Shown here: in pieces, positions 1 to 48,593 of the stretch
How the letters are laid out: every line of letters begins with the position of its first letter
How positions within the stretch are numbered: position 1 is the first letter of the stretch
Source of the DNA: Eledone cirrhosa
Lineage: Eukaryota
Direction of reading: 5' to 3'
Assembly (NCBI GenBank): GCA_964016885.1
Contig: OZ024740.1
Coordinates: forward strand, 108,872,001 to 108,936,000
Length of the DNA: 64,000 nt
Position numbers and translations under genes: made by a program
Notes under the pieces: generated by a model
The model's input: only the letters and a program-made list of their open reading frames with translations
The model's database searches: none
What the model was told of the DNA's origin: nothing

Positions 1-3000
1 TGACATAGGCAGTGTCTTTCATTAGAAATATAGTAATGAAAGGGTTGATGACATAGGCAGTGTCATCATTAGAAATATAGTAATGAAAGGGTTGATGACA
101 TAGGCAGTGTCATCATTAGAAATATAGTAATGAAAGGGTTGATGACATAGGCAGTGTCTTTCATTAGAAATATAGTAATGAAAGGGTTGATGACATAGGC
201 AGTGTCATCATTAGAAATATTGTACTGAATGGATTAATGACATAGGCAGTGTCTTTCATTAGAAATATTGTAATGAAAGGGTTGATGACACAGGCAGTGT
301 CTTTCATTAGAAATATTGTACTGAAAGGGTTGATGACATAGGCAGTGTGATCATTAGAAATATAGTAATGAAAGGGTTGATGACATAGGCTGTGTCTTTC
401 ATTAGAAATATTGTACTGAAAGGGTTGATGGCATAGGCAGTGTCATCATTAGAAATATAGTAATGAAAGGGTTGATGACATAGGCAGTGTCTTTCATTAG
501 AAATATAGTAATGAAAGGGTTGATGACACAGGCTGTGTCTTTCATTAGAAACATTGTACTGAATGGATTAATGACATAGGCAGTATCATCATTAGAAATA
601 TAGTAATGAAAGGGTTGATGACATAGGCAGTGTCATCATTAGAAATATAGTAAAGAAAGGGTTGATGACATAGGCAGTGTCTTTCATTAGAAATATTGTA
701 ATGAAAGGGTTGATGACATAGGCAGTGTCTTTCATTAGAAATATTGTAATGAAAGGGTTGATGACATAGGCAGTGTCATCATTAGAAATATAGTAATGAA
801 AGGGTTGATGACATAGGCAGTGTCTTTCATTAGAAATATAGTACTGAAAGGGTTGATGACATAGGCAGTGTCTTTCGTTAGAAATATAGTAATGAAAGGG
901 TTGATGACATAGGCAGTGTCTTTCATTAGAAATATAGTAATGAAAGGGTTGATGACATAGGCAGTGTCTTTCATTAGAAATATAGTAATGAAAGGGTTGA
1001 TGACATAGGCAGTGTCTTTCATTAGAAATATTGTAATGAAAGGGTTGATGACATAGGCAGTGTCTTTCATTAGAAATATTGTAATGAAAGGGTTGATGAC
1101 ATAGGCAGTGTCTTTCATTAGAAATATTGTACTGAATGGATTAATGACATAGGCAGTATCATCATTAGAAATATAGTAATGAAAGGGTTGATGACATAGG
1201 CAGTGTCATCATTAGAAATATAGTAATGAAAGGGTTGATGACATAGGCAGTGTCTTTCATTAGAAATATTGTAATGAAAGGGTTGATGACATAGGCAGTG
1301 TCTTTCATTAGAAATATTGTAATGAAAGGGTTGATGACATAGGCAGTGTCTTTCATTAGAAATATTGTACTGAATGGATTAATGACATAGGCAGTATCAT
1401 CATTAGAAATATAGTAATGAAAGGGTTGATGACATAGGCAGTGTCATCATTAGAAATATAGTAATGAAAGGGTTGATGACATAGGCAGTGTCTTTCATTA
1501 GAAATATTGTAATGAAAGGGTTGATGAAATAGGCAGTGTCTTTCATTAGAAATATTGTAATGAAAGGGTTGATGACATAGGCAGTGTCATCATTAGAAAT
1601 ATAGTAATGAAAGGGTTGATGACATAGGCAGTGTCTTTCATTAGAAATATAGTACTGAAAGGGTTGATGACATAGGCAGTGTCTTTCATTAGAAATATAG
1701 TAATGAAAGGGTTGATGACATAGGCAGTGTCTTTCATTAGAAATATAGTAATGAAAGGGTTGATGACATAGGCAGTGTCTTTCATTAGAAATATAGTAAT
1801 GAAAGGGTTGATGACATAGGCAGTGTCTTTCATTAGAAATATAGTAATGAAAGGGTTGATGACATAGGCAGTGTCTTTCATTAGAAATATTGTAATGAAA
1901 GGGTTGATGACATAGGCAGTGTCTTTCATTAGAAATATTGTAATGAAAGGGTTGATGACATAGGCAGTGTCTTTCATTAGAAATATAGTAATGAAAGGGT
2001 TGATGACATAGGCAGTGTCTGTCATTAGAAATATTGTAATGAAAGGGTTGATGACATAGGCAGTGTCTTTCATTAGAAATATTGTAATGAAAGGGTTGAT
2101 GACATAGGCAGTGTCTTTCATTAGAAATATAGTAATGAAAGGGTTGATGACATAGGCAGTGTCATCATTAGAAATATAGTAATGAAAGGGTTGATGACAT
2201 AGGCAGTGTCATCATTAGAAATATAGTAATGAAAGGGTTGATGACATAGGCAGTGTCTTTCATTAGAAATATAGTAATGAAAGGGTTGATGACATAGGCA
2301 GTGTCATCATTAGAAATATTGTACTGAATGGATTAATGACATAGGCAGTGTCTTTCATTAGAAATATTGTAATGAAAGGGTTGATGACACAGGCAGTGTC
2401 TTTCATTAGAAATATTGTACTGAAAGGGTTGATGACATAGGCAGTGTGATCATTAGAAATATAGTAATGAAAGGGTTGATGACATAGGCTGTGTCTTTCA
2501 TTAGACATATTGTACTGAATGGATTAATGACATAGGCAGTGTCTTTCCTTAGAAATATAGTAATGAAAGGGTTGATGACATAGGCAGTGTCTTTTATTAG
2601 AAATATTGTAATGAAAGGGTTGATGACATAGGCAGTGTCATCATTAGAAATATAGTAATGAAAGGGTTGATGACATAGGCAGTGTCTTTCATTAGAAATA
2701 TTGTACTGAAAGGGTTGATGGCATAGGCAGTGTCATCATTAGAAATATAGTAATGAAAGGGTTGATGACATAGGCAGTGTCTTTCATTAGAAATATAGTA
2801 ATGAAAGGGTTGATGACACAGGCTGTGTCTTTCATTAGAAATATTGTACTGAATGGATTAATGACATAGGCAGTATCATCATTAGAAATATAGTAATGAA
2901 AGGGTTGATGACATAGGCAGTGTCATCATTAGAAATATAGTAATGAAAGGGTTGATGACATAGGCAGTGTCATCATTAGAAATATAGTAATGAAAGGGTT

Positions 3001-6000
3001 GATGACATAGGCAGTGTCTTTCATTAGAAATATAGTACTGAAAGGGTTGATGACATAGGCAGTGTCTTTCGTTAGAAATATAGTAATGAAAGGGTTGATG
3101 ACATAGGCAGTGTCTTTCATTAGAAATATAGTAATGAAAGGGTTGATGACATAGGCAGTGTCTTTCATTAGAAATATAGTAATGAAAGGGTTGATGACAT
3201 AGGCAGTGTCTTTCATTAGAAATATTGTAATGAAAGGGTTGATGACATAGGCAGTGTCTTTCATTAGAAATATTGTAATGAAAGGGTTGATGACATAGGC
3301 AGTGTCTTTCATTAGAAATATTGTACTGAATGGATTAATGACATAGGCAGTATCATCATTAGAAATATAGTAATGAAAGGGTTGATGACATAGGCAGTGT
3401 CATCATTAGAAATATAGTAATGAAAGGGTTGATGACATAGGCAGTGTCTTTCATTAGAAATATTGTAATGAAAGGGTTGATGACATAGGCAGTGTCTTTC
3501 ATTAGAAATATTGTAATGAAAGGGTTGATGACATAGGCAGTGTCTTTCATTAGAAATATTGTACTGAATGGATTAATGACATAGGCAGTATCATCATTAG
3601 AAATATAGTAATGAAAGGGTTGATGACATAGGCAGTGTCATCATTAGAAATATAGTAATGAAAGGGTTGATGACATAGGCAGTGTCTTTCATTAGAAATA
3701 TTGTAATGAAAGGGTTGATGACATAGGCAGTGTCTTTCATTAGAAATATTGTAATGAAAGGGTTGATGACATAGGCAGTGTCATCATTAGAAATATAGTA
3801 ATGAAAGGGTTGATGACATAGGCAGTGTCTTTCATTAGAAATATAGTACTGAAAGGGTTGATGACATAGGCAGTGTCTTTCATTAGAAATATAGTAATGA
3901 AAGGGTTGATGACATAGGCAGTGTCTTTCATTAGAAATATAGTAATGAAAGGGTTGATGACATAGGCAGTGTCTTTCATTAGAAATATAGTAATGAAAGG
4001 GTTGATGACATAGGCAGTGTCTTTCATTAGAAATATTGTAATGAAAGGGTTGATGACATAGGCAGTGTCTTTCATTAGAAATATTGTAATGAAAGGGTTG
4101 ATGACATAGGCAGTGTCTTTCATTAGAAATATAGTAATGAAAGGGTTGATGACATAGGCAGTGTCTTTCATTAGAAATATTGTAATGAAAGGGTTGATGA
4201 CATAGGCAGTGTCTTTCATTAGAAATATTGTAATGAAAGGGTTGATGACATAGGCAGTGTCTTTCATTAGAAATATAGTAATGAAAGGGTTGATGACATA
4301 GGCAGTGTCATCATTAGAAATATAGTAATGAAAGGGTTGATGACATAGGCAGTGTCATCATTAGAAATATAGTAATGAAAGGGTTGATGACATAGGCAGT
4401 GTCTTTCATTAGAAATATAGTAATGAAAGGGTTGATGACATAGGCAGTGTCATCATTAGAAATATTGTACTGAATGGATTAATGACATAGGCAGTGTCTT
4501 TCATTAGAAATATTGTAATGAAAGGGTTGATGACACAGGCAGTGTCTTTCATTAGAAATATTGTACTGAAAGGGTTGATGACATAGGCAGTGTGATCATT
4601 AGAAATATAGTAATGAAAGGGTTGATGACATAGGCTGTGTCTTTCATTAGAAATATTGTACTGAATGGATTAATGACATAGGCAGTGTCTTTCCTTAGAA
4701 ATATAGTAATGAAAGGGTTGATGACATAGGCAGTGTCTTTCATTAGAAATATTGTAATGAAAGGGTTGATGACATAGGCAGTGTCATCATTAGAAATATA
4801 GTAATGAAAGGGTTGATGACATAGGCAGTGTCATTCATTAGAAATATAGTAATGAAAGGGTTGATGACATAGGCTGTGTCTTTCATTAGAAATATTGTAC
4901 TGAATGGATTAATGACATAGGCAGTATCATCATTAGAAATATAGTAATGAAAGGGTTGATGACATAGGCAGTGTCATCATTAGAAATATAGTAATGAAAG
5001 GGTTGATGACATAGGCAGTGTCTTTCATTAGAAATATTGTAATGAAAGGGTTGATGACATAGGCAGTGCCTTTCATTAGAAATATTGTAATGAAAGGGTT
5101 GATGACATAGGCAGTGTCATCATTAGAAATATAGTAATGAAAGGGTTGATGACATAGGCAGTGTCTTTCATTAGAAATATAGTACTGAAAGGGTTGATGA
5201 CATAGGCAGTGTCTTTCATTAGAAATATAGTAATGAAAGGGTTGATGACATAGGCAGTGTCTTTCATTAGAAATATAGTAATGAAAGGGTTGATGACATA
5301 GGCAGTGTCTTTCATTAGAAATATAGTAATGAAAGGGTTGATGACATAGGCAGTGTCTTTCATTAGAAATATTGTAATGAAAGGGTTGATGACATAGGCA
5401 GTGTCTTTCATTAGAAATATTGTAATGAAAGGGTTGATGACATAGGCAGTGTCTTTCATTAGAAATATAGTAATGAAAGGGTTGATGACATAGGCAGTGT
5501 CTTTCATTAGAAATATTGTAATGAAAGGGTTGATGACATAGGCAGTGTCTTTCATTAGAAATATTGTAATGAAAGGGTTGATGACATAGGCAGTGTCTTT
5601 CATTAGAAATATAGTAATGAAAGGGTTGATGACATAGGCAGTGTCTTTCATTAGAAATATTGTAATGAAAGGGTTGATGACATAGGCAGTGTCTTTCATT
5701 AGAAATATTGTAATGAAAGGGTTGATGACATAGGCAGTGTCTTTCATTAGAAATATAGTAATGAAAGGGTTGATGACATAGGCAGTGTCATCATTAGAAA
5801 TATAGTAATGAAAGGGTTGATGACATAGGCAGTGTCATCATTAGAAATATAGTAATGAAAGGGTTGATGACATAGGCAGTGTCTTTCATTAGAAATATAG
5901 TAATGAAAGGGTTGATGACATAGGCAGTGTCATCATTAGAAATATTGTACTGAATGGATTAATGACATAGGCAGTGTCTTTCATTAGAAATATTGTAATG

Positions 6001-9000
6001 AAAGGGTTGATGACACAGGCAGTGTCTTTCATTAGAAATATTGTACTGAAATGGTTGATGACATAGGCAGTGTGATCATTAGAAATATAGTAATGAAAGG
6101 GTTGATGACATAGGCTGTGTCTTTCATTAGAAATATTGTACTGAATGGATTAATGACATAGGCAGTGTCTTTCCTTAGAAATATAGTAATGAAAGGGTTG
6201 ATGACATAGGCAGTGTCTTTTATTAGAAATATTGTAATGAAAGGGTTGATGACATAGGCAGTGTCATCATTAGAAATATAGTAATGAAAGGGTTGATGAC
6301 ATAGGCAGTGTCTTTCATTAGAAATATTGTACTGAAAGGGTTGATGGCATAGGCAGTGTCATCATTAGAAATATAGTAATGAAAGGGTTGATGACATAGG
6401 CAGTGTCTTTCATTAGAAATATAGTAATGAAAGGGTTGATGACACAGGCTGTGTCTTTCATTAGAAATATTGTACTGAATGGATTAATGACATAGGCAGT
6501 ATCATCATTAGAAATATAGTAATGAAAGGGTTGATGACATAGGCAGTGTCATCATTAGAAATATAGTAATGAAAGGGTTGATGACATAGGCAGTGTCTTT
6601 CATTAGAAATATTGTAATGAAAGGGTTGATGACATAGGCAGTGTCTTTCATTAGAAATATTGTAATGAAAGGGTTGATGACATAGGCAGTGTCATCATTA
6701 GAAATATAGTAATGAAAGGGTTGATGACATAGGCAGTGTCTTTCATTAGAAATATAGTACTGAAAGGGTTGATGACATAGGCAGTGTCTTTCGTTAGAAA
6801 TATAGTAATGAAAGGGTTGATGACATAGGCAGTGTCTTTCATTAGAAATATAGTAATGAAAGGGTTGATGACATAGGCAGTGTCTTTCATTAGAAATATA
6901 GTAATGAAAGGGTTGATGACATAGGCAGTGTCTTTCATTAGAAATATTGTAATGAAAGGGTTGATGACATAGGCAGTGTCTTTCATTAGAAATATTGTAA
7001 TGAAAGGGTTGATGACATAGGCAGTGTCTTTCATTAGAAATATTGTACTGAATGGATTAATGACATAGGCAGTATCATCATTAGAAATATAGTAATGAAA
7101 GGGTTGATGACATAGGCAGTGTCATCATTAGAAATATAGTAATGAAAGGGTTGATGACATAGGCAGTGTCTTTCATTAGAAATATTGTAATGAAAGGGTT
7201 GATGACATAGGCAGTGTCTTTCATTAGAAATATTGTAATGAAAGGGTTGATGACATAGGCAGTGTCTTTCATTAGAAATATTGTACTGAATGGATTAATG
7301 ACATAGGCAGTATCATCATTAGAAATATAGTAATGAAAGGGTTGATGACATAGGCAGTGTCATCATTAGAAATATAGTAATGAAAGGGTTGATGACATAG
7401 GCAGTGTCTTTCATTAGAAATATTGTAATGAAAGGGTTGATGACATAGGCAGTGTCTTTCATTAGAAATATTGTAATGAAAGGGTTGATGACATAGGCAG
7501 TGTCATCATTAGAAATATAGTAATGAAAGGGTTGATGACATAGGCAGTGTCTTTCATTAGAAATATAGTACTGAAAGGGTTGATGACATAGGCAGTGTCT
7601 TTCATTAGAAATATAGTAATGAAAGGGTTGATGACATAGGCAGTGTCTTTCATTAGAAATATAGTAATGAAAGGGTTGATGACATAGGCAGTGTCTTTCA
7701 TTAGAAATATAGTAATGAAAGGGTTGATGACATAGGCAGTGTCTTTCATTAGAAATATTGTAATGAAAGGGTTGATGACATAGGCAGTGTCTTTCATTAG
7801 AAATATTGTAATGAAAGGGTTGATGACATAGGCAGTGTCTTTCATTAGAAATATAGTAATGAAAGGGTTGATGACATAGGCAGTGTCTTTCATTAGAAAT
7901 ATTGTAATGAAAGGGTTGATGACATAGGCAGTGTCTTTCATTAGAAATATTGTAATGAAAGGGTTGATGACATAGGCAGTGTCTTTCATTAGAAATATAG
8001 TAATGAAAGGGTTGATGACATAGGCAGTGTCATCATTAGAAATATAGTAATGAAAGGGTTGATGACATAGGCAGTGTCATCATTAGAAATATAGTAATGA
8101 AAGGGTTGATGACATTAGGCAGTGTCTTTCATTAGAAATATAGTAATGAAAGGGTTGATGACATAGGCAGTGTCATCATTAGAAATATTGTACTGAATGG
8201 ATTAATGACATAGGCAGTGTCTTTCATTAGAAATATTGTAATGAAAGGGTTGATGACATAGGCAGTGTCTTTCATTAGAAATATTGTACTGAAAGGGTTG
8301 ATGACATAGGCAGTGTGATCATTAGAAATATAGTAATGAAAGGGTTGATGACATAGGCTGTGTCTTTCATTAGAAATATTGTACTGAATGGATTAATGAC
8401 ATAGGCAGTGTCTTTCCTTAGAAATATAGTAATGAAAGGGTTGATGACATAGGCAGTGTCTTTCATTAGAAATATTGTAATGAAAGGGTTGATGACATAG
8501 GCAGTGTCATCATTAGAAATATAGTAATGAAAGGGTTGATGACATAGGCAGTGTCTTTCATTAGAAATATTGTACTGAAAGGGTTGATGGCATAGGCAGT
8601 GTCATCATTAGAAATATAGTAATGAAAGGGTTGATGACATAGGCAGTGTCTTTCATTAGAAATATAGTAATGAAAGGGTTGATGACATAGGCTGTGTCTT
8701 TCATTAGAAATATTGTACTGAATGGATTAATGACATAGGCAGTATCATCATTAGAAATATAGTAATGAAAGGGTTGATGACATAGGCAGTGTCATCATTA
8801 GAAATATAGTAATGAAAGGGTTGATGACATAGGCAGTGTCTTTCATTAGAAATATTGTAATGAAAGGGTTGATGACATAGGCAGTGTCTTTCATTAGAAA
8901 TATTGTAATGAAAGGGTTGATGACATAGGCAGTGTCATCATTAGAAATATAGTAATGAAAGGGTTGATGACATAGGCAGTGTCTTTCATTAGAAATATAG

Positions 9001-9828
9001 TACTGAAAGGGTTGATGACATAGGCAGTGTCTTTCATTAGAAATATAGTAATGAAAGGGTTGATGACATAGGCAGTGTCTTTCATTAGAAATATAGTAAT
9101 GAAAGGGTTGATGACATAGGCAGTGTCTTTCATTAGAAATATAGTAATGAAAGGGTTGATGACATAGGCAGTGTCTTTCATTAGAAATATTGTAATGAAA
9201 GGGTTGATGACATAGGCAGTGTCTTTCATTAGAAATATTGTAATGAAAGGGTTGATGACATAGGCAGTGTCTTTCATTAGAAATATAGTAATGAAAGGGT
9301 TGATGACATAGGCAGTGTCTTTCATTAGAAATATTGTAATGAAAGGGTTGATGACATAGGCAGTGTCTTTCATTAGAAATATTGTAATGAAAGGGTTGAT
9401 GACATAGGCAGTGTCTTTCATTAGAAATATAGTAATGAAAGGGTTGATGACATAGGCAGTGTCTTTCATTAGAAATATTGTAATGAAAGGGTTGATGACA
9501 TAGGCAGTGTCTTTCATTAGAAATATTGTAATGAAAGGGTTGATGACATAGGCAGTGTCTTTCATTAGAAATATTGTACTGAATGGATTAATGACATAGG
9601 CAGTGTCATCATTAGAAATATTGTAATGAAAGGGTTGATGACATAGGCAGTGTCATCATTAGAAATATAGTAATGAAAGGGTTGATGACATAGGCTGTGT
9701 CTTTCATTAGAAATATAGTAATGAAAGGATTAATGACATAGGCAGTGTCATCATTAGAAATATAGTACTGAAAGGGTTGATGACATAGGCAGTGTCTTTC
9801 ATTAGAAATGAGGTAAGTAAAGGGTTAA
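1..9828. repeat. 47/48-bp tandem minisatellite (~200 units, continues off the left edge)
   Basis: Consensus TGACATAGGCAGTGTCTTTCATTAGAAATATAGTAATGAAAGGGTTGA (48 bp); 47-bp variant with GTCATCATT. The last unit, 9781-9828, ends ...GTAAAGGGTTAA. The MKDTAYVINPFITIFL ORFs are translations of the monomer. Confidence 0.98.
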
Positions 9829-10288
9829 TATAATTTCTAATATCATATCTAATTATTTTCTGTATTCACAAATGAGATTATAACATTAAAAAATATTAAT
9901 TTTTTAACTATATCTTAACTATAATAAAGAAAGGAGTGTGGGACTGCATCCAGAATATAATTTTTTATCTCGTTTGTATTACTTTGAATAAATAATGAAT
10001 GAATATTAAATAATTTATCTGCTAAATTTCGTAGCTTTTGATTAAATATATTTTATTGCTTATTTAAAGATTCACTTCTTTAAAACTTTCAAATGTCAAC
10101 ACTTCCGGTTAGTGATTGCTTAAATAAACATTCATATATTTCCGTCACTTATTTTTTCCTAATGCAGTTTATATATAGTATCGTCTTTTTTAATGTATCA
10201 TGGATTACGTTACTGATTACATAAGACAGTGTAACGCAGTCTTCGTTCAATTTCTGTGTATATTGTCAATTACGATTTTATTTGATGT

Positions 10289-12866
10289 ATCATCATCATC
10301 ATTTTACGTCCGCTTTTCCCTGCTTGCAAGGATGGGATGGGTCCTATTCAGCACAGCATCTCTCCATTTATCACGGTCCTTCTTATCTCCACTGTGAGCT
10401 TCAGCAATCTGAGATCTGTTCTCACCACCTCCGCCCATGTTTTTCGTGATCTACCTCTACCACGTCTTCCTTCAACTCGCATTTCCTGGCACTTCTTCAC
10501 CCATCGGTCATCCTCTATGCGCATCACATGTCCATACCATCGCAGTCTCCTCTCTTCCACACTACAATCTATCCCTCTCAGACACAGTTTCTCTGTCAAC
10601 ACATCCATGCTCGGTCGTTCACGCACATTGACTTTGCACATCCAACGGAGCATGTTTACCTCATTTCTCTCCAGCCATCGCATATCCTCTGCAGTTACTG
10701 CCCATATCTCACTACTATGCAGCATCGCACTCCTCACACAGGCATCATATAACTGGCCTTTCATACGCAGGGAGAAACCCTTCTTCGTCAGCAGAGGAAG
10801 CAGCTCTCTAAACTTCTTCCAACCCATCCTTATTCTAGATACTATGGCCTCGGAACATCCCCCTCCCATGCTAATCTGATCTCCTAGGTACCGGAAGCTG
10901 TCAACCATTTCTATAGCACCCACCTGCATTTGAAAAATGTGTCTATCAATGCGACTTCTACTGTCTAATTTCCCTGTACATCTACTGCATACGGATTTTC
11001 CCCTACCTGTTAGTTTGCCTGCTATCCCACTACATCTCTTGTGTACCCAAGATCTGCATCGTGTGCATTTTATAGAATTTATGCCAGTTCCTTTTCTGCA
11101 TATCGAACATGGCCATTACCCTGACGGAATCAGAGTTTTGTCCTCTTTTCTACTCATCAACACTTTTGTCTTAGTTAGGTTCACTCTCAGTCCTCTTGAT
11201 TCCAACTGCTGTTTCCATAGCCAGAATTTATTCTCTAGCTCCTCTACTGATTCTGCTATAAGAACCAGATTGTCAGCATAGAGAAGGTCCCATGGACAGC
11301 CAGTCTTAAACTCCCCTGTTATGGCTTGGAGGACTATAATGAACAAGAGCGTGCTGAGGACCGAACCCTGATGTACTCCTACTTGTATCTGGAATTCCTC
11401 ACTAAACTCGATTCCTACCCTCACTTTACTGACAGCACCTCTGTACAAAGTTTGCATTGTCCACACAAGCCATTCTTCAACACCTAGTTTCCTTAGGGAC
11501 CACAAGATGACAGATCAGGGTACCCTATCAAAGGCCTTTTCTAGGTCAACAAAAGCTAAGTATAGTGGCTTATTCTTATCTAAGAACCTCTCTTGTAATT
11601 GTCTCACTAAGAAGAGGGCATCTTGTACTTTTCCCAGGCACAAAACCAAACTGCATCTCATCTAGTTTGACCCTTTCTCTAATTAGTTGTGCTAATATCC
11701 TTTCTGCCACTTTCATAACCTGATCCATCAGTTTTATACCCCTATAATAGTCTTTTGTCTCTAATGGCCCTATCTACCGTGCTGTTCTACCACCAGGTCA
11801 CTCTCTGTCTGGTTGGAGCTCTGCTCCAGCAACAAGTTTCATCAGTAGCCTGCAGTAAGTTGTCACGTAAGAAATTCCAGTTATCATCTATGTCATACGA
11901 CTCTAAATCGTCTTCTTTTTCATCATACACATCTTGAAGGGCTTTCCTAAATTTGTATTTTAGTGAAAGGTCTTTTAGCTTCCAGACCTTTCTTCCCCAC
12001 ACCTTCCTGTATGTCTCATTCCGTCTCTTGTTTACTGAAATACCACTAACGACTAACCTATGCTGTGGGGGTACATTCTTCCCCAGGGTATGCCTTGGTA
12101 TTTGACACCATCTGCCTGTCCCACTGCCTAATTAGTAAGAAGTCAATCTGGCTTATGTGCTCGCCTGATTTGTGGGTTATTAGGTGGTTGGGTTATTTGT
12201 GGGTTATTAGGTGGTTTGTGGGTTATTAGGTGATTGTGGGTTATTAGGTGGTTGTGGGTTATTAGGTGCATCACAAAATTCAAGAAGTCTCACTCCTTCA
12301 TTTCTTGAGTTGTAACTGTGTCCACCATGTACCCCAGTGTAACCATCCTGGAGCTGTATAACGATGTCTCCGTCCTCTGTCATTGCGGCTGTTTGTAAAA
12401 GTTGCTCGTAAAAGCAGTCTTTCTCTTCTTTACCTAGGCATGCTTGGGGAGCATAGGGAGAGATGATTGTCAGTAGTCTTCTGCCTACAACTAATCTAAG
12501 CTTAATTATTATATTATTAACTTGAACTACCTCTATTGTCTTATTGATCCATCTCTCAGCCAGGAAAATGCCTACTCCCCCTACCCAGAAAAGCCTATAA
12601 CTAAGATGTTTGCCTACGATTAGTCTCGCAGAGGCACCTCTCCATCTCACCTCTTGCACGCAGCACACATCCACATGCCTTCTCTCCAGCATCTCAGCTA
12701 ATTCACCAGATCTACCTGCGAGAGTGCCAACATTAAGTGTTGCAACTCTGAGATGCGACTTCTTCATATTTTTGTTCCTTTTCCTGTAGTGCGATTGCTT
12801 GAAGACGGTTGGGGGGGGGGGGGGGGGGGTTCTTGCACATGGCCGCACCAGCCACTCCACTACCGT
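10289..12866 (-). mobile_element. RTE-clade LINE (family 1), near full-length, degenerate, internally deleted
   Basis: APE start LRVATLNVGTL..CVQEVRW (12207-12881); RT GVHQGSVLS..YADN (11116-11505); C-terminal RRLRWYGHVMR..RGRGR (10348-10929); (ATG)n tail at 10289-10302; frameshifts; ~580 bp missing at ~11750 relative to the 38641-41132 copy. Confidence 0.93.
12170..12268. repeat. 18-bp tandem repeat (TTGTGGGTTATTAGGTGG) inside the RTE endonuclease region
   Basis: About 5 imperfect units seen directly; absent from the paralogous copy at ~40440. Confidence 0.85.
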
Positions 12867-15600: not shown

Positions 15601-15691
15601 AACAACAACCAATCACTTAAATATAGACATAAGTAGTGTCTTTCATTAGTTTGGTAGAATCATTATAATTGAGTATGAAATAAAAACTTAC

Positions 15692-16547: not shown

Positions 16548-16867
16548 CTGAAAAAAAAAAAGGGTATAAAACAAAATATATTTTAGTTAATTTTAGGGTT
16601 GTTAAAATATAAATTTATAAATAACAACAAACATTTAATGATGAAAGGACTCAATACTTGTAGTAGAGCCCCTGTTTCTATGATACAAAACTGTTCGTTT
16701 TAAGATATTTATATTTATCTAAAACTGTTCCTCAATAATTTTGTGTAAAGAACCTTTGTTAAGTTATATTCCAAAAACCAGCTTAATGGTTTCTTACAAA
16801 GGCACAATGTCAGAATTTTGTGGGGAGAGAGGTAAGTCAGTTATTATTAGCATGTTAATATAACATA

Positions 16868-17072
16868 ATAGTTTCAAATTTAGACACAATGTCAGTAATT
16901 TTTGGGAAGAACAAGTTGATTAAATTGATCTTAGTACTTGACTTGCACTTTATTTTAACAACCCTAGAAGGATGAAAGGCAAAATTGACCGTGGCAGGTT
17001 TAGTGCACGAGGCCATAATGAAATACTGCAATGCATTTCATCTGATGCACTAATGATCCTGCAAATCCACTG
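16868..17072 (-). mobile_element. SINE family A inserted in a degenerate TTAA-MITE
   Basis: SINE motifs GGATGAAAGGCAAAATTGACC; the flanks 16670-16790 and 17085-17170 match the MITE body at 48380-48550 and 19600-19735. Confidence 0.6.
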
Positions 17073-17457
17073 CCCCGAAAAAAACACCAACGTAATATGG
17101 AGAAAGCTACTTATATTACTAAATCCCTCAAAATTCTTGATTATTTTCAAGATGATTCATAAATTCAAGTGTCTGATTAGAAATATACCTATTTAGGTCC
17201 TCTATATAGTATAAATGTGATCTGCACTAGAGTTCTGCTCACATATTTCAGACCAAACAGCTGTTTTAAGTTTGAACAATTGATACAGGTATGTAAGGGA
17301 GCTCAAAGTTAGTTTTGCTGATATTTCCCTAGATTGATCTGTTAAAGGTCCAACTGAGAACCTCATATCTCTAACTTCATCTTGTTAAAGACAAACATTG
17401 GACTACAAGCTCATAGATCTAAAGTTGAAACACTTTGTAGGTATTTCATTGATGTAT

Positions 17458-17821
17458 TTAACCTTTTTAATACCAAACCATTTGAAACCGGCCTAGATTT
17501 ATATGAAATTTTTATCATCATCATCATTAATGTCTATTTTTCATACTTGCATAAATTTGATAGGATGTTGCATGCTGATGCAAGGCCAGTAAGATGACCA
17601 CATCCTGAAATATGTTCTGTTTTGGCTTGGTTTCTATTATTATATTAAACCAATTCATTATAATTATATTTAAAAAATTTTTTTTTAATAATATTCATAA
17701 TACCAGTCAACTAATGATAAACCTAGTTGTTATATTAATTTTATACAAATGTTTATTTTCAAAATGAATTGAAACACATCAGCAGTTTATATAATTAGAA
17801 ATACGATGATGAAAGGGTTAA
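17458..17821. mobile_element. Non-autonomous TTAA-flanked MITE (piggyBac-like), interrupted by an RTE-tail fragment
   Basis: TTAA|CCTTTTTAATACCA ... GATGAAAGGG|TTAA termini; body similar to 48349-48593. Confidence 0.6.
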
Positions 17822-17861
17822 ACAGTACACTTAATTTACATCTCTTAATAATGTGATAGAT

Positions 17862-18737
17862 AAAGTGTTGATAAGTAGAAGAGAGGACAATATTCCGATT
17901 CCATCAGGGAAATGGCCATATTGAATATGTAGGAAAGGAACTGGCATAAATTCCATAAAATGTATGCAATGCAGACCTTGGGTACACAAGAGATGTAGTG
18001 GGATAGCAGGCAAACAAACAGGTAGGGAAAACTACGTATGCAGTAGATGTACAGGGAAAGTTGGCAGTATTAATCACAGTGATAGACACATTTTTCCAAT
18101 GCAGGTGGGTTCTATAGAAGTGGTTGATAGCTTCCGGTACCTAGGAAATCAGATTAGCATGGGTGGGGGATGTTCCGAGGCAATAGTATCTAGAATAAGG
18201 ACGGGTTGGAAGAAGTTTAGGGAGCTGCTTCCTTTGTTAACAAAGAAGGGTTTCTCCCTGCATACGAAAAGACGGTTAGATGATGCCTGTGTGAGATGCG
18301 CGATGCTGCATGGTAGTGAGACATGGGCGGCAACTGCAGAGGATATGCGATGGCTGGAGAGAAATGAAGCAAGTATACTCCGTTGGATGTGCAATGTCAA
18401 TGTGTGTGAAACACCAAGCATGGAGGAGTTGAGAAAGAAACTGGGTATAAGAGGGATAAGTTGTGGTGTGCAGGAGAGAAGGCTGAGATGGTATGGGCAT
18501 GTGATGCGCATGGAGGATGACTGCTGGGTAAAGAAGTGCCAAAAAATCCCAGTAGAAGGAAGACGCAGAAGAGGCAGACCACGTAAAACATGGGCGGAGG
18601 TGGTGAGAGCAGACCTCAGATCGCTGAAACTCACTGAGGAGATGACGAAGGACCGTGACAAGTGGAGAGATGCTGAATAGGACCCATCCAACCCTTGCAA
18701 GCAGGGAAAAGCAGACGTAAAATGATGATGATGATGA
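17862..18737 (+). mobile_element. RTE-clade LINE (family 1), 5'-truncated 3' fragment
   Basis: ORF 17964-18680 (CxxC-containing region, FRYLG, RRLRWYGHVMR, RGRPRKTW); short 3'UTR ACCCTTGCAAGCAGGGAAAAGCAGACGTAAA plus (ATG)n. Confidence 0.93.
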
Positions 18738-18738
18738 T

Positions 18739-18858
18739 TGGACATCTTAACCAGGGAACATTTATCTCTATGTTGTGATAAACTGAACATCTTAACCAGG
18801 GGAACATTTATCTCTTAATGTTGTGACAGACTGCACATCTTAAAAAGGGGAACATTTA
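18739..18858. repeat. 45-48-bp tandem repeat, ~2.6 copies
   Basis: TGGACATCTTAACCAGGGAACATTTATCTCTATGTTGTGATAAAC units between two RTE tails. Confidence 0.85.
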
Positions 18859-19585
18859 TCATCATCGTTTAACGTCTATCTTCCACGCTAGCATGGGTTA
18901 GATGGGAGTTGTCCCAATTTGATGCAAGGTTGGTCAGGTGACCGTGTCTCGCTCGTATAGGACTATCTAGCAGGTTTTCTACAGCTGGATGCCCTTCCTA
19001 ACACCAAACACATTTACAGTGTGGACTGGGAACTTTTTACCGTGTTACCTACACGGCCACATTACAGCGTGGACTGTGTGTCTTTTTAGTCGTGACACCT
19101 ACACGATCTCGATCTCATTATCTCATTAATTTGGACTGGATGTTGTGGTACCAACTTTACAGAGAAAGGGTGGTGTTGGTGGGAGTGGGAGAATGGAGTA
19201 GGGGTAGTAGATTGGGGTGTATATTTGGTTAAGAGGTGCCTACTGACTGTAGGTTTCGATTTGTACTTAGGCAAGGCGGATCTTCTGTATTACTGCGTGG
19301 CGCCAAAGATCTCGGTCCAGTGGCATTGTCTTAGAGAGGTGCAAGTGTGTAAGGTTGGAATTTATCAAATCATCCCATGTTTTTCTGGGTCTACCTACTC
19401 CGTAACTTCCATCAATTTTGATCGCCCTGCACTTTTTTATACAGCTGTCGTCTTTCATGCGCATCACGTGACCATACCAACGTAGTCTTCTCTCAAGTAA
19501 ACAGCATCTGATCCCTCTTATTCCTAATTTCTCACTTAGTTCATTTATGTTTTGCCGTTCGCGTATATTATTATTACACATCCAT
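18858..19585 (-). mobile_element. RTE-clade LINE (family 2) 3' fragment with long 3'UTR
   Basis: ERRLRWYGHVMRMKDD..GRPRKTW; UTR contains GGAAGGGCATCCAGCTGTAGAAAA; GAT tail; near-identical to 36661-37370. Confidence 0.9.
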
Positions 19586-19599
19586 AATTTTAGTAAATT

Positions 19600-19735
19600 A
19601 CATTCCACACATCAGCTTAATAATGAGAAAGTTAGTTATGTTACTAATTACCTCAAAATTCTTGATTATTTTAAAGACCATTTGAAAATCATAAGTAATG
19701 TCTTTTAATAAAAATATGGTAATAAAAAGGTTAAA
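19600..19735. mobile_element. TTAA-MITE right-end fragment
   Basis: Ends AAATATGGTAATAAAAAGG|TTAA; similar to the other MITE ends and to the satellite monomer. Confidence 0.55.
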
Positions 19736-28494: not shown

Positions 28495-31400
28495 TTACAG
28501 ATATATACTCAGAGTAGGCCCATTCACTCGGGCCATTCTTGCTTCTCTCACCCATCTTTCAACAAAATGCTGGGAAGAGAGCACTCCCCTCTCTACTCTG
28601 ATTTTCCTTTTCAAATGAAATTTGAAAAAGTCAATCAGAGCATCACCGAAGAGGTAAGTGCTCGTCTTCACCCCTTTCAAACTTGTCCACCATACTATCT
28701 CTTTCGCCATGGCCACCAGACAGATAAAAACTGCCTGCCCTTCCCGGCTAAAGGTGGAGGGCGGGGCAATCCTAACGATGGACTCAGATGATAGCCGGAT
28801 CCGTCCTAAACACGACAGCAGGTGTTCGACATAAACCCACAAGTCAGCAATTTTCGGACACTGGACGAGTGTGTGCAGGACGGTTTCGTCGCCCTGCGCG
28901 CATCTCGGACATGCCCGGCTGACGGCACCTCCATGCCTGTAGAGTTTATCCCGAACTGGCAAGGCTCCTCGGTAGCACTGCCAGGCCAGAGATTTCTGGA
29001 AGTTGTCCATAGGCCCTGGCCCGAAAGTTCTTCCGAAGAGATTGGCTAGTTGATTTTCGTCGACGCCTAGAGTTTCCCCAAGTACGTCGTCGCTCTTCCC
29101 CTCCACTAATCCTCTATAGAACGCCGAGGTGGAGTTTCCACCGATCACATTGCCCGATTGGTCGAGGGCTGTGAGCGCCTGAAGACATTCCAGTCTCCAG
29201 GCGCTCCCTCTCGGTCTTCGCTTGACCCAGGACTGCAGCTCCGTCAAGGAAACGAGCTGGGGAAATACGTGTCTAGAAAACGGCGACCACACCTGATCAC
29301 CGTCGAGGAAGAGGTGGAGATGTCGTAGCCTGAGCGCGTGCCTGCGCATCATCAGCCACGGCATGCCCAGCCCTCCACGTAGCGGGTGTTGACAACAGAT
29401 GGACCGCCTGACCATCGAAGCGCGTCCCTTCCACAAAAAGCGAAAGAACAAACGCTCCAGCGCAGTCAGGCGAAGCTTAGGACAAGGTACGACGGTCAGG
29501 CGGTAGCAGATGACAGACGCGATGTACGCGTTAGCCACCTCCGCTCGACCTTTCAGGGATAGCTTCCTCTCCGCCCATTTCTGGGTGAGAGAAGCCACAC
29601 TGCTCGTCACCTCGTCCCAGTTTTTGTCCGTCTGGAGGTCCGGACCGAACCAGACCCCTAGCAATTTAACCGGTCCGTCCGTCCAGCGTCTGACGACGCT
29701 GTTGGATGGCATGGACTTGCCTCTCCAGGTGCCGAGCTGCAGGCCCACTGACTTTTCCTGGTTGATCATTGCTCCTGTCACCGTTTCGTATTCTCTTAGT
29801 GTAGTGCCGATCGCCTCGATGTGTTTGGCGTTCGACACCACTACGGTGACATCGTCCGCATATGCTGACACGGATCTTCCGCATCCTAGTTCGCGCAGGA
29901 CGCCCCTCAACGTCTCCAGTTTGTGCAGTAATGGCTCGAGAGTCAATACGTACAAGAGGGACGAGAGGGGACATCCTTGGCGGACCGAGCGCATGATGTT
30001 GAACGGTTCCGACAGGTGACCGTTCACTCTCACCACAGAGCAGATGTCGCTCTGCATGGCAGCGATCCAGCCTCTGAAGACGGGCCCAAAGCCAGCCGCT
30101 CTCAGGACTGCCGCTAGGTAACGATGGTCGACCCTATCGAAAGCTTTCGACTGATCTAAATTGATCAAGGACCCACCCGTGCCAGGTTCCTTAGCTACCC
30201 TCTCTACGATGTATCGCATGAGGTGGAGGTTGTCGTGGATGGATCTGTCGGGAATGGCGCACGTCTGCGCCTCTCCCACCATACCACCAACGACAAGTGC
30301 CAACCTCTTTGCTAGCACCTTGGCCAAAATCTTGAACTCTGTGTTTAGCAGAGTTATGGGCCGGAAATTATCTATGTTATCCCTCTTGTTCGGATCCTTT
30401 CTCAGCAGTGCCACCGCTCCTCGGCTCACAGAACTGGGAATTCTCCCGTTCTGTTGCCAGTTGCAGTAGACGTCCGCCAAGAGGCCTCCGAACAAGTCTG
30501 GCATCTGTACGTAAAGTTCATAGGGCAGACCATCCAAACCAGGCGATTTACCCCTTGTGCAGCCAGTCATTGCCTCCCTTACTTCAGCGGTTGTTATCGG
30601 CTTTTCGCAACACTTCGCCTCAGTGGCCGAGAGCCGCGGCAGTCCGTCGAGGTAGACACTAAAGTCCATCCCTCGACCCGGCCCACCGCTGCCCCCGAAC
30701 AGCTGAGCGAAGTGTCGCTGAAAAGCTTCACACATTTGCCCGGGATCGAGTAGCATGCGCCCGTCGTGGTCCACCAAAGACCGGATCGTGGCTTTGTTGC
30801 CACGACGCGCCTCCGCCACTCGGGCCCATTGAACGGCTTTCGTCCCCTCGTGTCTGAGAGCACGCATCCTAGCTCTGACAACGCAGCCTTCGTGCTTTGC
30901 ATTGAAGAATTGGTCAAGGGCCAATTTCGCCGCAAGCACGTCGGTCGCAATGCCTTTGCTAAGCGCCTCGTCTAATTTTCTAACTAGTTCTCCCTCTGCT
31001 CTATTTTTCTCTATTGCTAAAGCCTTACTAAACCTAATGGATTCTATTCTAATCGCTCTTTTCAGAGCAAACCACCACTTGTTGTTGACGATGGCCCCCG
31101 TCAACGCCCGCTTAACTAGTTTGCTAATCCGGTCTCTGTAGGCCTTGCGCGCTGGTAAGGACGCGTTTAGCTTCCAGTAGCCGGGTCCTCGTCTATGAAG
31201 CCTATCTAAGTCAAGCACACAGATCACGAATTTGTGGTCCGTGTAGCAGCTGACTATCTTGAATTGTGGACAGCCTATGCTAGACCTATCTATTTCCCTA
31301 CAAAATACTCTATCTAGATATGATCTGGATGACCCTATGCGATTTGTCCAAGTCCACATTTGCGCATTCGGGAAATCCAATCGGTACCTGTCAGACAGTT

Positions 31401-31917
31401 CAAAACTCCTGAGCAGGTTGGTGAGGCTCTTGCACCCTCCACCCCTATCCGCTAATCCCACACAGTCCCAGCGTGCATCTAAGATCCCGTTCCAGTCGCC
31501 CACTAACACTAAAGAGCGGGACGTTCCAAGAAAGGTCTCCAGACGCCGGAAGAAATCAGGCCGCCCTGCTCCTGTCGGGGCATAGACGGCCACTAGACAG
31601 AAAGCTTGCCCGTCTCCGCTGGTCACGTCCAGCACCACCAGCTTACCCTCTGGGTCCAGGAAGATGGCCCGTATGGCGAGATCCAAACCTCTCCGAAAAA
31701 GCACAGCAACTCCTCCCCCCGATCCAGGACGGCTGGGAGATGCATACACATCGTAGCCGCCGAAGATCGGTGCGAAGGCCCGTGCTTCGGAGATTCTGGT
31801 CTCGCTGATGGCCACTACATCTATGTTTAGTGACCTGAGGTCGTTGAGCAGGTGACCCTGCTTCCATGACGACCCCAAGCCACGCGCATTTATGCTGCCT
31901 ATTCTGAGTGAGTTCAT
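28495..31917 (-). CDS. Tx1-type ORF2: APE endonuclease, reverse transcriptase, CCHC zinc finger (intact, 1140 aa)
   Basis: SINARGL, ISETR, VYAP, GDWN, SYLDRV, YTDH (APE); GPGYWKLN; KSPGLDGLP, NFRPITLLN, DQSKAFDRV, RQGCPLS, YADD (RT); CPRC..ETVLHTLVQC. Confidence 0.95.
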   Translation of the reverse strand: MNSLRIGSINARGLGSSWKQGHLLNDLRSLNIDVVAISETRISEARAFAPIFGGYDVYASPSRPGSGGGVAVLFRRGLDLAIRAIFLDPEGKLVVLDVTSGDGQAFCLVAVYAPTGAGRPDFFRRLETFLGTSRSLVLVGDWNGILDARWDCVGLADRGGGCKSLTNLLRSFELSDRYRLDFPNAQMWTWTNRIGSSRSYLDRVFCREIDRSSIGCPQFKIVSCYTDHKFVICVLDLDRLHRRGPGYWKLNASLPARKAYRDRISKLVKRALTGAIVNNKWWFALKRAIRIESIRFSKALAIEKNRAEGELVRKLDEALSKGIATDVLAAKLALDQFFNAKHEGCVVRARMRALRHEGTKAVQWARVAEARRGNKATIRSLVDHDGRMLLDPGQMCEAFQRHFAQLFGGSGGPGRGMDFSVYLDGLPRLSATEAKCCEKPITTAEVREAMTGCTRGKSPGLDGLPYELYVQMPDLFGGLLADVYCNWQQNGRIPSSVSRGAVALLRKDPNKRDNIDNFRPITLLNTEFKILAKVLAKRLALVVGGMVGEAQTCAIPDRSIHDNLHLMRYIVERVAKEPGTGGSLINLDQSKAFDRVDHRYLAAVLRAAGFGPVFRGWIAAMQSDICSVVRVNGHLSEPFNIMRSVRQGCPLSSLLYVLTLEPLLHKLETLRGVLRELGCGRSVSAYADDVTVVVSNAKHIEAIGTTLREYETVTGAMINQEKSVGLQLGTWRGKSMPSNSVVRRWTDGPVKLLGVWFGPDLQTDKNWDEVTSSVASLTQKWAERKLSLKGRAEVANAYIASVICYRLTVVPCPKLRLTALERLFFRFLWKGRASMVRRSICCQHPLRGGLGMPWLMMRRHALRLRHLHLFLDGDQVWSPFSRHVFPQLVSLTELQSWVKRRPRGSAWRLECLQALTALDQSGNVIGGNSTSAFYRGLVEGKSDDVLGETLGVDENQLANLFGRTFGPGPMDNFQKSLAWQCYRGALPVRDKLYRHGGAVSRACPRCAQGDETVLHTLVQCPKIADLWVYVEHLLSCLGRIRLSSESIVRIAPPSTFSREGQAVFICLVAMAKEIVWWTSLKGVKTSTYLFGDALIDFFKFHLKRKIRVERGVLSSQHFVERWVREARMARVNGPTLSIYL

Positions 31918-48348: not shown

Positions 48349-48593
48349 TTAACTCATTTGATATCAACCCACCTGAAACCAGTCCTGGTTTTTATGATAC
48401 AAAAGTGTTCATATCTAAATTAAAAACTGTCCAATGTGATGTTATGCAAAAACCTTTTATTAAGCGATGTTTCAAATACCAGTTTAATAATGAAAAAGTT
48501 AAGTTATGCACGTTATTAAATTTGTTCAAATTCTTCAATATTTTGAAACAAGGCCTATGAATTTTGTAAGAAATATAGTAACAAAAGGGTTAA
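48349..48593. mobile_element. TTAA-flanked MITE (piggyBac-like), complete degenerate copy
   Basis: TTAA|CTCATTTGATATCA ... AGAAATATAGTAACAAAAGGG|TTAA. Confidence 0.65.

Follow-up and report, generated by a model that had tools for sequence, protein, structure and literature searches.

A 48-bp satellite of Eledone cirrhosa whose unit is the right end of a piggyBac-type MITE together with its TTAA target site

Satellites derived from MITEs are already known as a kind, and the case described here is a very clean one rather than an unprecedented one. In Xenopus, the Xstir satellite is described as a repeat that stems from the Xmix MITE (Hikosaka and Kawahara 2004), the transposon region concerned being given as the terminal inverted repeat (PMC9659126), and in Xenopus tropicalis the Tc1/mariner MITE miDNA4 is described as carrying a satellite (Scalvenzi and Pollet 2014). 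A terminal region of the foldback transposon Tetris is reported as the building block of a satellite in Drosophila virilis (PMC4079207). Bivalves (Donax, Crassostrea) are described as having both tandem-repeat-containing MITEs and Helentron-borne satellites. The Tetris-derived satellite of Drosophila virilis we take to be TIR-220. A word and motif search of the open-access literature found no piggyBac-derived satellite, which is not proof of absence, and the reviews on TE-derived satellites that we examined nowhere mention piggyBac.

As far as these published accounts go, the Eledone cirrhosa satellite shares features with each of them. It resembles Xstir and Xmix, a likeness that rests on descriptions and not on sequences, in that a MITE, a tandem array and a MITE-plus-array composite occur in one genome; unlike Xstir, it belongs to the piggyBac superfamily, as judged by ends common to PF13843-encoding elements, its unit joins the 44 bp of a single end to the TTAA target site, and its first step is proposed to be a duplication bracketed by microhomology, where stem-loop excision is proposed for Xstir. 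With miDNA4 it shares a variable number of units within a MITE, short direct repeats (microhomology) around the unit and the rise of long arrays from which the terminal repeats are lost; the 230-kb array described here nevertheless keeps both termini, and, while the miDNA4 repeat is internal and thought to be captured, the Eledone cirrhosa unit is the right terminus of the transposon itself, target site included. As in Tetris, a satellite has been built from the terminal part of a DNA transposon; Tetris, however, has long internal tandem repeats in both arms, while here the end of a piggyBac element with a 14-bp terminal inverted repeat has been tandemised on one side only. The bivalve cases likewise present short satellite arrays scattered in the genome and attached to non-autonomous mobile elements, but their repeats are the internal cargo of other superfamilies and not, as here, the recognition end itself.

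The window, by which we mean the whole 64,000-nucleotide stretch of DNA analysed, opens inside a tandem array (Table 1). Tandem Repeats Finder gives it a period of 48, 205.6 copies and 94% matches over 1-9809, equivalent to ~206 monomers of 47-48 bp up to position 9828, and an anchor-based parse of 1-9828 yields 205 units, of which 144 measure 48 bp and 60 measure 47 bp, the remaining one being a 96-bp double. In the genome these repeats belong to a satellite array of roughly 230,000 bases; the window catches only its right tail, 4% of the whole. The sequence-only reading, which preceded this analysis, was right that a tandem array is present, but the array overruns the left edge and extends over 229,935 bp (G000:C1:108651894-108881828, window coordinates -220106 to 9828; hereafter the C1 array) rather than 9.8 kb. 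Likewise, the ~200 putative transposase-binding termini which that reading had proposed give way to 4,491 anchor-defined units, and GGG-TTAA is kept in only 27 of the 4,453 units parsed. Its statement that internal monomers end GGGTTGA describes 181 of the 204 internal units in the window and fails for the rest (tails over all 205 units: 181 GGGTTGA, 22 GGATTAA, one TGGTTGA and one GGGTTAA); the final monomer does, as it had said, measure exactly 48 bp and end GGGTTAA, the sole such tail among the window units. The final-monomer variant, but with a TTGA end, occurs 83+28 times inside the C1 array.

From position 9829 on, the flank is unrelated to the array, and among the 10 longest frames of the window no host gene is recognisable to the right of the array, where LINE and other repeat frames lie. 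An assembly artefact is unlikely given the internal structure of the array, the LINE with a target duplication that it contains and the abundance of its units in independent contigs. Read depth in run X1 reaches 10^5-10^6 over satellite bins as against about 11 in the unique flank, figures that are not a copy number. No RNA run is among those listed for window 9700-11200, and runs of other organisms (coded B, C and D) contain the unit as well.

Table 1. Satellite and MITE features of the window (coordinates are window positions).
Position	Strand	Feature	Details
1..9828	+	Right-hand 9.8 kb of the C1 satellite array	Window parse and full-extent mapping
9781..9828	+	Final monomer, exactly 48 bp, with end AAAGGG-TTAA; right terminus of the composite plus its TTAA	
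9825..9828	.	Right-boundary TTAA	Partner TTAA at window -220106, directly before CCCTTTACCAAACC
15625..15650	+	Solitary monomer-like fragment	31/48 to monomer
16670..17153	+	Two MITE fragments	Consensus 34-149 at 16670-16785; consensus 137-208 at 17082-17153
17458..17821	+	MITE copy with both ends (TTAA...GGGTTAA)	Consensus 1-45 at 17458-17502 and 79-264 at 17640-17821, the two parts separated by about 137 bp of other sequence
19586..19734	+	5'-truncated MITE copy of the 'AATCATAGG' subfamily, end AGGTTAA	Consensus 115-264
48349..48593	+	Full-length diverged MITE copy, TTAA at both ends	Consensus 1-264, 70% identity

What repeats in this satellite array is a 48-bp unit made up of the final 44 bp of a piggyBac-type MITE and the TTAA target site that follows them. 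Against a 264-bp, TTAA-flanked MITE consensus derived from 29 genomic copies, the monomer agrees without gaps at 44/48 of the last 48 positions (44 bp plus TTAA), whereas 10,000 shuffles reached 14.2 on average (sd 3.0) and 25 at most; this comparison had been set beforehand as the refuting test of a MITE origin, and it rules out chance similarity between monomer and MITE end. Single matches to the monomer in the window are only just beyond chance: anchored at the right, they score 35/48 at 17774-17821, 35/48 at 19687-19734 and 33/48 at 48546-48593, where the best match of 200 shuffled monomers over the same 54 kb was 27.4 on average and 32 at most. The 34/44 identity first reported with 17776-17819 is reproduced as positions 3-46 of the first of these, and the similar MITE ends seen near 19710-19733 and 48570-48592 are the other two. 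Taken in the literal register, with monomer 1-44 laid on 17776-17819, the agreement is 10/44, and it is the right-anchored register that is correct. The proposal that the unit had been born from a terminal inverted repeat thus keeps its MITE end and loses its limits, since the unit takes in the whole terminal 44 bp and TTAA, for which the inverted repeat alone is too little. Within the unit the terminal repeat of the element is accompanied by a subterminal copy in inverted orientation, and in single-stranded DNA the two are computed to fold into a hairpin with a 9-bp stem (-5.5 kcal/mol; z -3.3 for the + strand and -4.1 for the - strand).

The other refuting condition set beforehand, lack of a MITE body and a TTAA-CCCTTT left terminus ahead of the array, does not hold either: both are present where the array begins, 220 kb left of the window. 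Compared with the MITE consensus, this left end scores 111 (shuffles 37.0 +/- 7.1, maximum 62), and its body alone scores 88 (shuffles 30.5 +/- 6.1). Read from left to right, the C1 array consists of TTAA-CCCTTT, a 143-bp MITE body, about 4,490 units with one LINE insertion, now in three copies, among them, and AAAGGG-TTAA, and as a whole it is still framed as one giant non-autonomous element. The kinship of the C1 body to the MITE family is clear only with the 29-copy consensus; a BLAST search with the same body, covering the window plus eight array loci of 3 kb each, returned one weak match only.

In the 29-copy alignment, conservation collapses just outside both TTAAs, and these consensus boundaries, rather than an empty site (none was found), suggest that the TTAA of the MITE is a target-site duplication. 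The termini are CCC...GGG in a short terminal inverted repeat, the consensus end CCCTTTTGATAC and the reverse complement of the right end CCCTTTCATTAC being identical at 9/12 positions by a count made by eye. The members of the family are small, non-coding and dispersed in many copies, with at least 905 and at least 2,506 first-look candidates in the genome for two queries, the first of these being the copy at 17458-17821. PF13843 (DDE_Tnp_1_7) has 125 matches in the genome, and 7 of the 30 loci that were fetched (L104, L107, L109, L111, L114, L116 and L120) have MITE-like ends on both sides; each is a 2.5-2.6-kb TTAA-flanked element with a perfect 14-bp terminal inverted repeat, its ends matching positions 1-22/25 and 205-264 or 238-264 of the MITE consensus. 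At L109 the transposase match lies between both ends, which correspond to consensus 1-25 at 92% and 205-264 (~61 bp) at 87%. The label piggyBac-like, applied earlier from the termini, is therefore upheld by ends that the MITE has in common with 2.6-kb TTAA-flanked elements encoding a PF13843 transposase. The other TTAA-targeting DNA transposons are those of the Kolobok superfamily, and assignment to it is unnecessary because both MITE ends match PF13843-encoding elements. At none of the seven loci was an intact cognate transposase seen: the two copies listed with reading frames have frames of only 441 aa and 408 aa, and the other five have stop codons inside the transposase match.

Beyond the C1 array, at least 35 loci spread over many contigs have the same satellite, with 126 matches on 15 other contigs, and as regards dispersal the earlier suggestion of a mobile satellite stands. 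Exact 35-mers across the monomer junction occur 9,548 times in the genome, as against 0 for a reversed control, and genome-wide it is the TTAA form of the junction that dominates, unlike in the C1 array. As a rule the satellite adjoins the right end of a MITE copy at these other loci and keeps its phase, and the MITE terminus is where it usually stops. Left boundaries were captured in 26 cases, 18 of them with a MITE body scoring above all 17 controls and eight without a body (L131 provides one more with a body); among 20 true right boundaries, by our own reading, 11 are in phase and within one mismatch of GGGTTAA, and four more are nearly so. Solo MITEs, MITE-plus-array copies and arrays without a body coexist in the genome, the solo form at 28 of 29 loci of one set and at the 29 loci of another. 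Junctions of the 26 local consensus monomers read TGA in 21, AGA in four and ACA in one, and at L091, the oldest-looking array, the junction (TTAA followed by ACACATAG) is exactly what the MITE itself reads 48 bp before its end.

We consider it very probable that the array is a MITE-end satellite, likely begun by one tandem duplication and grown to 230 kb via unequal crossing-over. The unit boundaries are exact and include the TTAA target site, so the first event was likely a duplication of the right end after insertion. At the start, the right end of a MITE would have been tandemly duplicated once, perhaps by way of microhomology, TTGAA / TTAA(A), on either side of the unit; the junction may later have changed from ACA to AGA to TGA, and a change of TTAA to TTGA that arose locally may have been homogenised throughout the C1 array. 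The C1 array has long, complex higher-order repeat patterns and three array domains, and contains a LINE (endonuclease and reverse transcriptase) bounded by a 19-bp target duplication, three copies of which share the same left junction at 99.84% and 99.16% identity. Because higher-order repeats occur together with one LINE insertion that is present three times, we attribute the growth of this array to segmental amplification.

How the satellite came to so many sites is a separate matter. One account, which accepts the same origin, has it spread by ordinary piggyBac transposition of composites followed by local expansion or collapse of the arrays, and this we regard as a serious contender, although on the whole we lean against it. 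Seven composites (L002, L085, L127, L128, L131, L074 and L079), which lie at unlinked sites with unrelated flanks, run from a 5' terminus through a full body and 6-19 units to a closing GGG-TTAA; for L128, L131 and L085, with TTAA at both ends and unrelated flanks, co-transposition fits equally well. The one derived junction, TGA, that is common to 21/26 local consensus monomers argues for a single source lineage, and if arrays often shrank back to one unit, array-bearing copies would likewise be dispersed over a tree of MITE bodies. Each composite would consist of a left end, a body and several right-end units, and any of these units could serve the transposase as partner for the left end.

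Against transposition of composites stands the age of the parts, the arrays looking younger than the MITE copies they adjoin. The first 40 bp of 11 composite loci are decayed to 78.5% identity with the consensus, as are those of solo MITE copies (78.8%, n=23), a 40-bp 5' probe being short and part of this divergence possibly reflecting subfamily differences, whereas the array units in the same 11 loci show 92.3% identity with the modal unit of the genome as a whole, which the local consensus matches at 46-48/48 positions in 10 of the 11. In most composites, by our own reading, the CCC of the terminus is altered. The array-attached bodies are 63.7% identical pairwise (62-88% to their own consensus), and among the 29 nearest relatives of such a body only 1 carries an array, the other 28 being solo copies. 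Nor do array-bearing bodies cluster on a tree of 76 bodies, where the array state needs 17 changes and shuffled labels need 17.0 on average (range 13-19), the signal of this tree being weak, with rows of ~200 bp at 60-80% identity and solo copies picked by similarity to two queries. The array at L091, moreover, sits on a body of the other subfamily. Because the arrays are younger than the adjoining MITE bodies and not co-inherited with them, we favour spread by homology-directed copying of units onto the right ends of resident MITEs, through ectopic repair or circle integration.

A bolder form of homology-directed copying, which we offer tentatively and think doubtful as a whole, is that the right end of piggyBac now spreads by itself as a satellite. 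Its arrays would not mainly travel by transposition; homology-directed repair, or the integration of circular multimers, would copy them onto the right ends of old resident MITEs, thousands of which would serve as landing pads, possibly after one-ended cleavage by transposase; its intact GGG-TTAA ends could titrate transposase. Such a satellite would explain why the arrays are in phase with the MITE terminus, near-identical between loci and younger than the bodies.

Binding of piggyBac transposase to the units is expected, as a prediction from the unit sequence, but we think it unlikely that the units are kept as putative binding sites (a sink) or for a role in the chromosome, for instance as a centromere or a source of piRNAs. 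Retention of this kind would suit a unit made of terminal repeat and inverted subterminal copy, the unusual uniformity of the unit sequence between loci, the thousands of intact GGG-TTAA junctions and the presence in the genome of a piggyBac subfamily with 561-aa open frames. Yet the TTAA has been lost in 99% of the units of the largest array, the loci are scattered along contigs, several per contig, rather than one per chromosome, and the cognate transposase copies that were seen are truncated or interrupted. No cellular function of the array is required.

For the first dimer, a double-insertion model, reportedly that of McGurk and Barbash, would have a second MITE insert at the right TTAA of a resident one and then lose its own left 216 bp; we judge this quite improbable here. 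PiggyBac elements insert only at TTAA, and a TTAA does stand at the end of every copy. Multiple TE insertion, with the work of McGurk and Barbash, is also cited among the routes to satellites in a review. However, the 27 local consensus monomers show no trace of a 5' terminus (CCCTTT...) between the TTAA and the next unit, and the ancestral junction, TTAA followed by ACACATAG, is colinear with the MITE's own sequence; because it is colinear, one 48-bp duplication suffices, whereas double insertion needs an insertion and a precise deletion. The reverse direction, in which the 48-bp satellite unit came first and the MITE acquired it as its right end, much as a review gives capture of tandem repeats by MITEs as a proposal for miDNA4, is scarcely credible, in that the homologous 61 bp are also the right end of the autonomous piggyBac, 14-bp terminal inverted repeat included, solo MITE copies with a single unit run to hundreds or thousands (the at least 905 and at least 2,506 first-look candidates), and the TTAA target site, no part of a transposon, belongs to the unit.

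For annotation, the lesson is to treat the MITE and the 48-bp satellite as a single family when masking. The birth of satellites from transposons and their spread to many chromosomes have so far mostly been inferred from end states. Here every stage is found in one genome: the autonomous piggyBac, the MITE, MITE copies with 6 to >200 right-end units, body-less arrays and a 230-kb array that has kept both transposon termini. The age gap between arrays and the MITE copies that host them yields a checkable prediction, one that separates transposition from homology-directed copying.

The satellite unit on contig C1, 48 bp long, is closely similar to the right end of a small, TTAA-flanked, piggyBac-type element (MITE). 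A search with one copy from the window, in which 40 of 905 first-look candidates were scored, gave 41 matches; alignment of 29 loci produced a consensus of 264 bp, both TTAAs included, in which column conservation goes up at the left TTAA and collapses past the right one. Against its last 48 positions (the terminal 44 bp of the element followed by TTAA) the unit matches at 44/48 without gaps, compared with a mean of 14.2 (sd 3.0, maximum 25) for 10,000 shuffled units, so that the monomer is far more MITE-like than shuffled sequence, in line with the sequence-only reading. The 34/44 identity that this reading counted at 17776-17819 is reproduced inside a longer match of 35/48; the similar ends it noted near 19710-19733 and 48570-48592 are present too, at 35/48 and 33/48, but each barely surpasses the best that shuffled units attain across the same 54 kb (27.4 on average, maximum 32). 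Single window matches (33–35/48) barely exceed chance in this sense, and it is the consensus comparison that carries the claim.

The left end of the array tells the same story. Immediately left of the first C1 unit lies a 191-bp element, ordered TTAA-CCCTTTACCAAACC, body, TTTCATTAGAAATATTGTACTGAAAGGG-TTAA, which scores 111 against the consensus (500 shuffles, 37.0 ± 7.1, maximum 62), and 88 when its last 48 bp are removed (30.5 ± 6.1, maximum 50). By alignment it is a MITE family member with internal deletions, supplying the MITE body and TTAA-CCCTTT left terminus expected before an array of this origin. Within the window, one MITE is split by a piece resembling a repeat with a weak PHD-finger match that begins with an ATC-rich stretch; this repeat has very high contig depth in sequencing run X1 and occurs in runs of other organisms.

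The description of the MITE as piggyBac-like also proved sound. With 116 of 1,116 candidates scored, a genome search for the piggyBac transposase domain PF13843 gave 125 matches, and at seven of the 30 loci fetched (L104, L107, L109, L111, L114, L116, L120) there is a TTAA-bounded 2.5–2.6-kb element that matches the MITE consensus over 22–25 bp on the left and 27–61 bp on the right, with the transposase match situated between these ends; in L109, consensus positions 1–25 match at 92% and 205–264 at 87%, and L118 has a MITE-like right end only. These cognate elements start TTAA-CCCTTTCGTTACCA and finish TGGTAACGAAAGGG-TTAA, their ends forming a perfect inverted repeat of 14 bp. The direction runs from transposon to satellite, since the 61 bp shared on the right serve as the functional end of an autonomous element. 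Two cognate copies have listed frames, of 441 and 408 aa only, and the remaining five contain stop codons inside the transposase match. A second piggyBac subfamily (~2,570 bp, TTAA-CCCTTTAGC ends) differs from the MITE in subterminal sequence, the common end sequence extending no further than CCCTTT; it looks recently active, because 561-aa frames without stop codons are found at at least seven loci.

Tandem Repeats Finder assigns the array in the window a period of 48 bp, with 205.6 copies at 94% matches over 1-9809, and anchor-based parsing of 1-9828 yields 205 units, which are 48 bp (144) or 47 bp (60) long apart from a single double unit. That internal monomers end GGGTTGA is true of 181 units and not of a further 22 ending GGATTAA and one ending TGGTTGA, while the final monomer does end GGGTTAA—the sole such unit of the window, followed by unrelated sequence. 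A 9-bp inverted repeat (CTTTCATTA ... TAATGAAAG) lies within the unit, which folds as single-stranded DNA at -5.5 kcal/mol (z -3.3 for the + strand, -4.1 for the - strand). Two further short tandem repeats in the window (48-bp period, 2.5 copies; 61-bp period, 2.4 copies) are unrelated to the satellite by Tandem Repeats Finder consensus.

The roughly 200 units first described are only a right tail. Traced leftward in 10-kb steps with additional probes (genome of 3.0 Gb, 1,796 contigs), the structure measures 229,935 bp from left TTAA to right TTAA and holds 4,491 anchor-defined units, spaced at 48 bp (3,436), 47 bp (1,012) or 35 bp (29); tails among 4,453 parsed units are 3,592 GGGTTGA, 491 GGATTAA, 183 GAGTTGA and just 27 GGGTTAA. 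Higher-order repeat patterns are long, and three domains differ in their sets of units when variants are coded as letters. Three interruptions, of 4.9–5.8 kb each, are all copies of one LINE that inserted into a satellite unit and encodes endonuclease, reverse transcriptase and zf-RVT domains (open frame of 1,153 aa in L013). A 19-bp target duplication composed of unit sequence flanks two copies, two are spaced 13,985 bp apart, and identity between copies is 99.84% (4,895 bp compared) and 99.16% (4,889 bp compared), with a common left junction. Such near-identity and shared junction indicate a single insertion copied together with array blocks. The LINE copies thus show directly that, once the LINE was in place, the array expanded by segmental amplification of the unequal-exchange type, and they date its large block duplications as very recent. 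Another LINE, in the window, encodes a 1,177-aa open frame with the same three domains and has 74% DNA identity to the array LINE over 2.7 kb.

Coordinates of the satellite array and of other features discussed (window coordinates count from C1:108872001, the window ending at C1:108936000; G000 is the Eledone cirrhosa genome)
Feature	Coordinates	Remark
First unit of C1 array	C1:108652086	
LINE copies in array	G000:C1:108723232-108728126, 108737217-108742111, 108821959-108827676	loci L013, L014, L040-L042, left of window
Array tail	window 1-9828	
Last unit	window 9781-9828	
PHD-finger-like repeat	window 10286-11115, 17925-18680	
MITE search query	window 17454-17825	
Piece splitting a MITE	window 17503-17639	
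MITE ends compared	window 17774-17821, 19687-19734, 48546-48593	first is right-anchored
Short tandem repeats	window 18742-18860, 45165-45313	48-bp, 61-bp period
Other LINE	window 28495-32028 (-)	
Composite MITE L128	G000:C1:312634100-312635700	
Second piggyBac subfamily	G000:C1:430503680-430504732	example; loci L095-L103
Several arrays in last 12 Mb of C1	G000:C1:431089147-435924084	

Beyond this array, a unit-dimer search found 126 matches on 15 contigs besides C1, from 40 scored of 250 candidates, and an exact search for the 35-nt junction of the common unit form gives 9,548 occurrences in the genome (3,553 forward, 5,995 reverse), against none for its reversed control. We inspected 35 distinct other satellite loci and obtained a local consensus unit for 26, of which 25 end GGGTTAA and one GGATTAA; a TTGA consensus tail was seen for the C1 array only, and at window 9684, the G of TTGA, run X1 contigs carry A in 1,005,775 of 1,048,032 depth units, a depth that is not a copy number. 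The C1 array is, on these two grounds, a locally homogenised variant, and the terminus with its TTAA is intact in most units genome-wide. Contigs of three other organisms (runs X5-X7) span the unit with a likeness of at least 85% in window 9640-9844, one bearing the unit-to-unit junction GGGTTAA|TGACA, so that other genomes share the satellite as well as the MITE. The first 100 listed junction places fall mostly in several arrays in the last 12 Mb of C1 (442.9 Mb), and other arrays lie close to contig ends (C17 at 0.11 Mb, C6 at 0.75 Mb, C28 at 135.6/136.5 Mb); from these listed positions, a subtelomeric bias is possible.

At 18 of 26 captured left boundaries the MITE body lies directly upstream (scores 67–266; maximum 51 in 17 controls), the alignment in 10 of them beginning at most 8 nt from the first base of the element; no body was found at the other eight, and L131 has one additional full body at its left boundary. 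Among 23 captured right boundaries, three run on as diverged units (strings read by eye), 11 are within one mismatch of GGGTTAA in phase, four show two changes or a 1-nt shift and five end elsewhere, the chance of an in-phase end by random phase being ~1 in 48. Some loci are composites—TTAA, left terminus, full body, 6–19 units and terminal GGG-TTAA (L002, L085, L127, L128, L131 and others)—at unlinked sites with unrelated flanks, as would fit the main rival account, in which arrays spread by co-transposition of composite elements. Four results fit it poorly. The first 40 bp are as decayed in 11 composites (78.5% identity to consensus) as in 23 solo copies without arrays (78.8%), and the terminal CCC is altered in most composites (strings read by eye), whereas units in the composites' arrays are on average 92.3% identical to the genome-wide modal unit, the local consensus agreeing with it at 46–48 of 48 positions in 10 of 11 composite loci. 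Array-attached bodies are just 63.7% identical pairwise (range 41–80%), and the 29 nearest genomic relatives of one such body comprise 28 solo copies and one with an array. In a maximum-likelihood tree built from 76 bodies (19 of them array-bearing), whose rows are short and diverged and whose solo copies were picked by similarity to two queries, array state changes 17 times, no more clustered than shuffled labels (mean 17.0, range 13–19), with the proviso that array collapse to one unit would escape detection. At modest odds, we therefore prefer an account in which units are copied in a homology-directed manner onto the right ends of resident MITEs, perhaps by ectopic repair or by single-crossover integration of circular multimers, which would also account for the exact phase at both array edges.

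How the first repeat formed is suggested by its junctions. After TTAA, the 26 local consensus units continue TGA (21), AGA (4) or ACA (one, L091). ACACATAG is identical to the MITE consensus starting 48 bp before the end of the right TTAA, and the TTGAA preceding it in the MITE matches TTAA(A) at the unit's end in four of five positions. One tandem duplication encompassing the last 44 bp and the TTAA, with this microhomology on either side, would yield the L091 junction directly, with ACA, AGA and TGA then forming a simple mutational series; we infer that the first repeat arose in this way and, since TTAA is target DNA, in an inserted copy. The alternative that another MITE inserted at the flanking TTAA is argued against by the absence of any trace of a 5' terminus after TTAA in all local consensus units inspected. 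The small composite L128, whose six units form a two-unit higher-order repeat with a GGATTGGTTAAAGAGATAG junction in one unit type, shows that higher-order structure can arise even in very short arrays.

Nothing in the data requires a function. A transposase sink would be compatible with the unit's content (a terminal repeat with a subterminal copy in inverted orientation) and with the thousands of ends still intact, but TTAA has been lost from 99% of units in the largest array. Satellites from MITEs and transposon terminal repeats are established, with examples in Xenopus (Xstir/Xmix, miDNA4), Drosophila virilis (Tetris) and bivalves (MITE- or Helentron-borne repeats); as here, MITE, composite and array coexist for Xstir, and microhomology flanks the miDNA4 unit. 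The open-access literature searched yielded no piggyBac-derived satellite, which is not proof of absence in print, and the word piggyBac is absent from the reviews on TE-derived satellites that were consulted. Distinct from known MITE satellites here are the piggyBac superfamily, a unit that combines a single recognition end with its target site, an array of 230 kb keeping both termini, and the age gap between arrays and their host copies. The observation is confirmed and the reading of the array as an amplified MITE end is supported, with its scale corrected; the genome offers a natural transposon-to-satellite series that is very complete.
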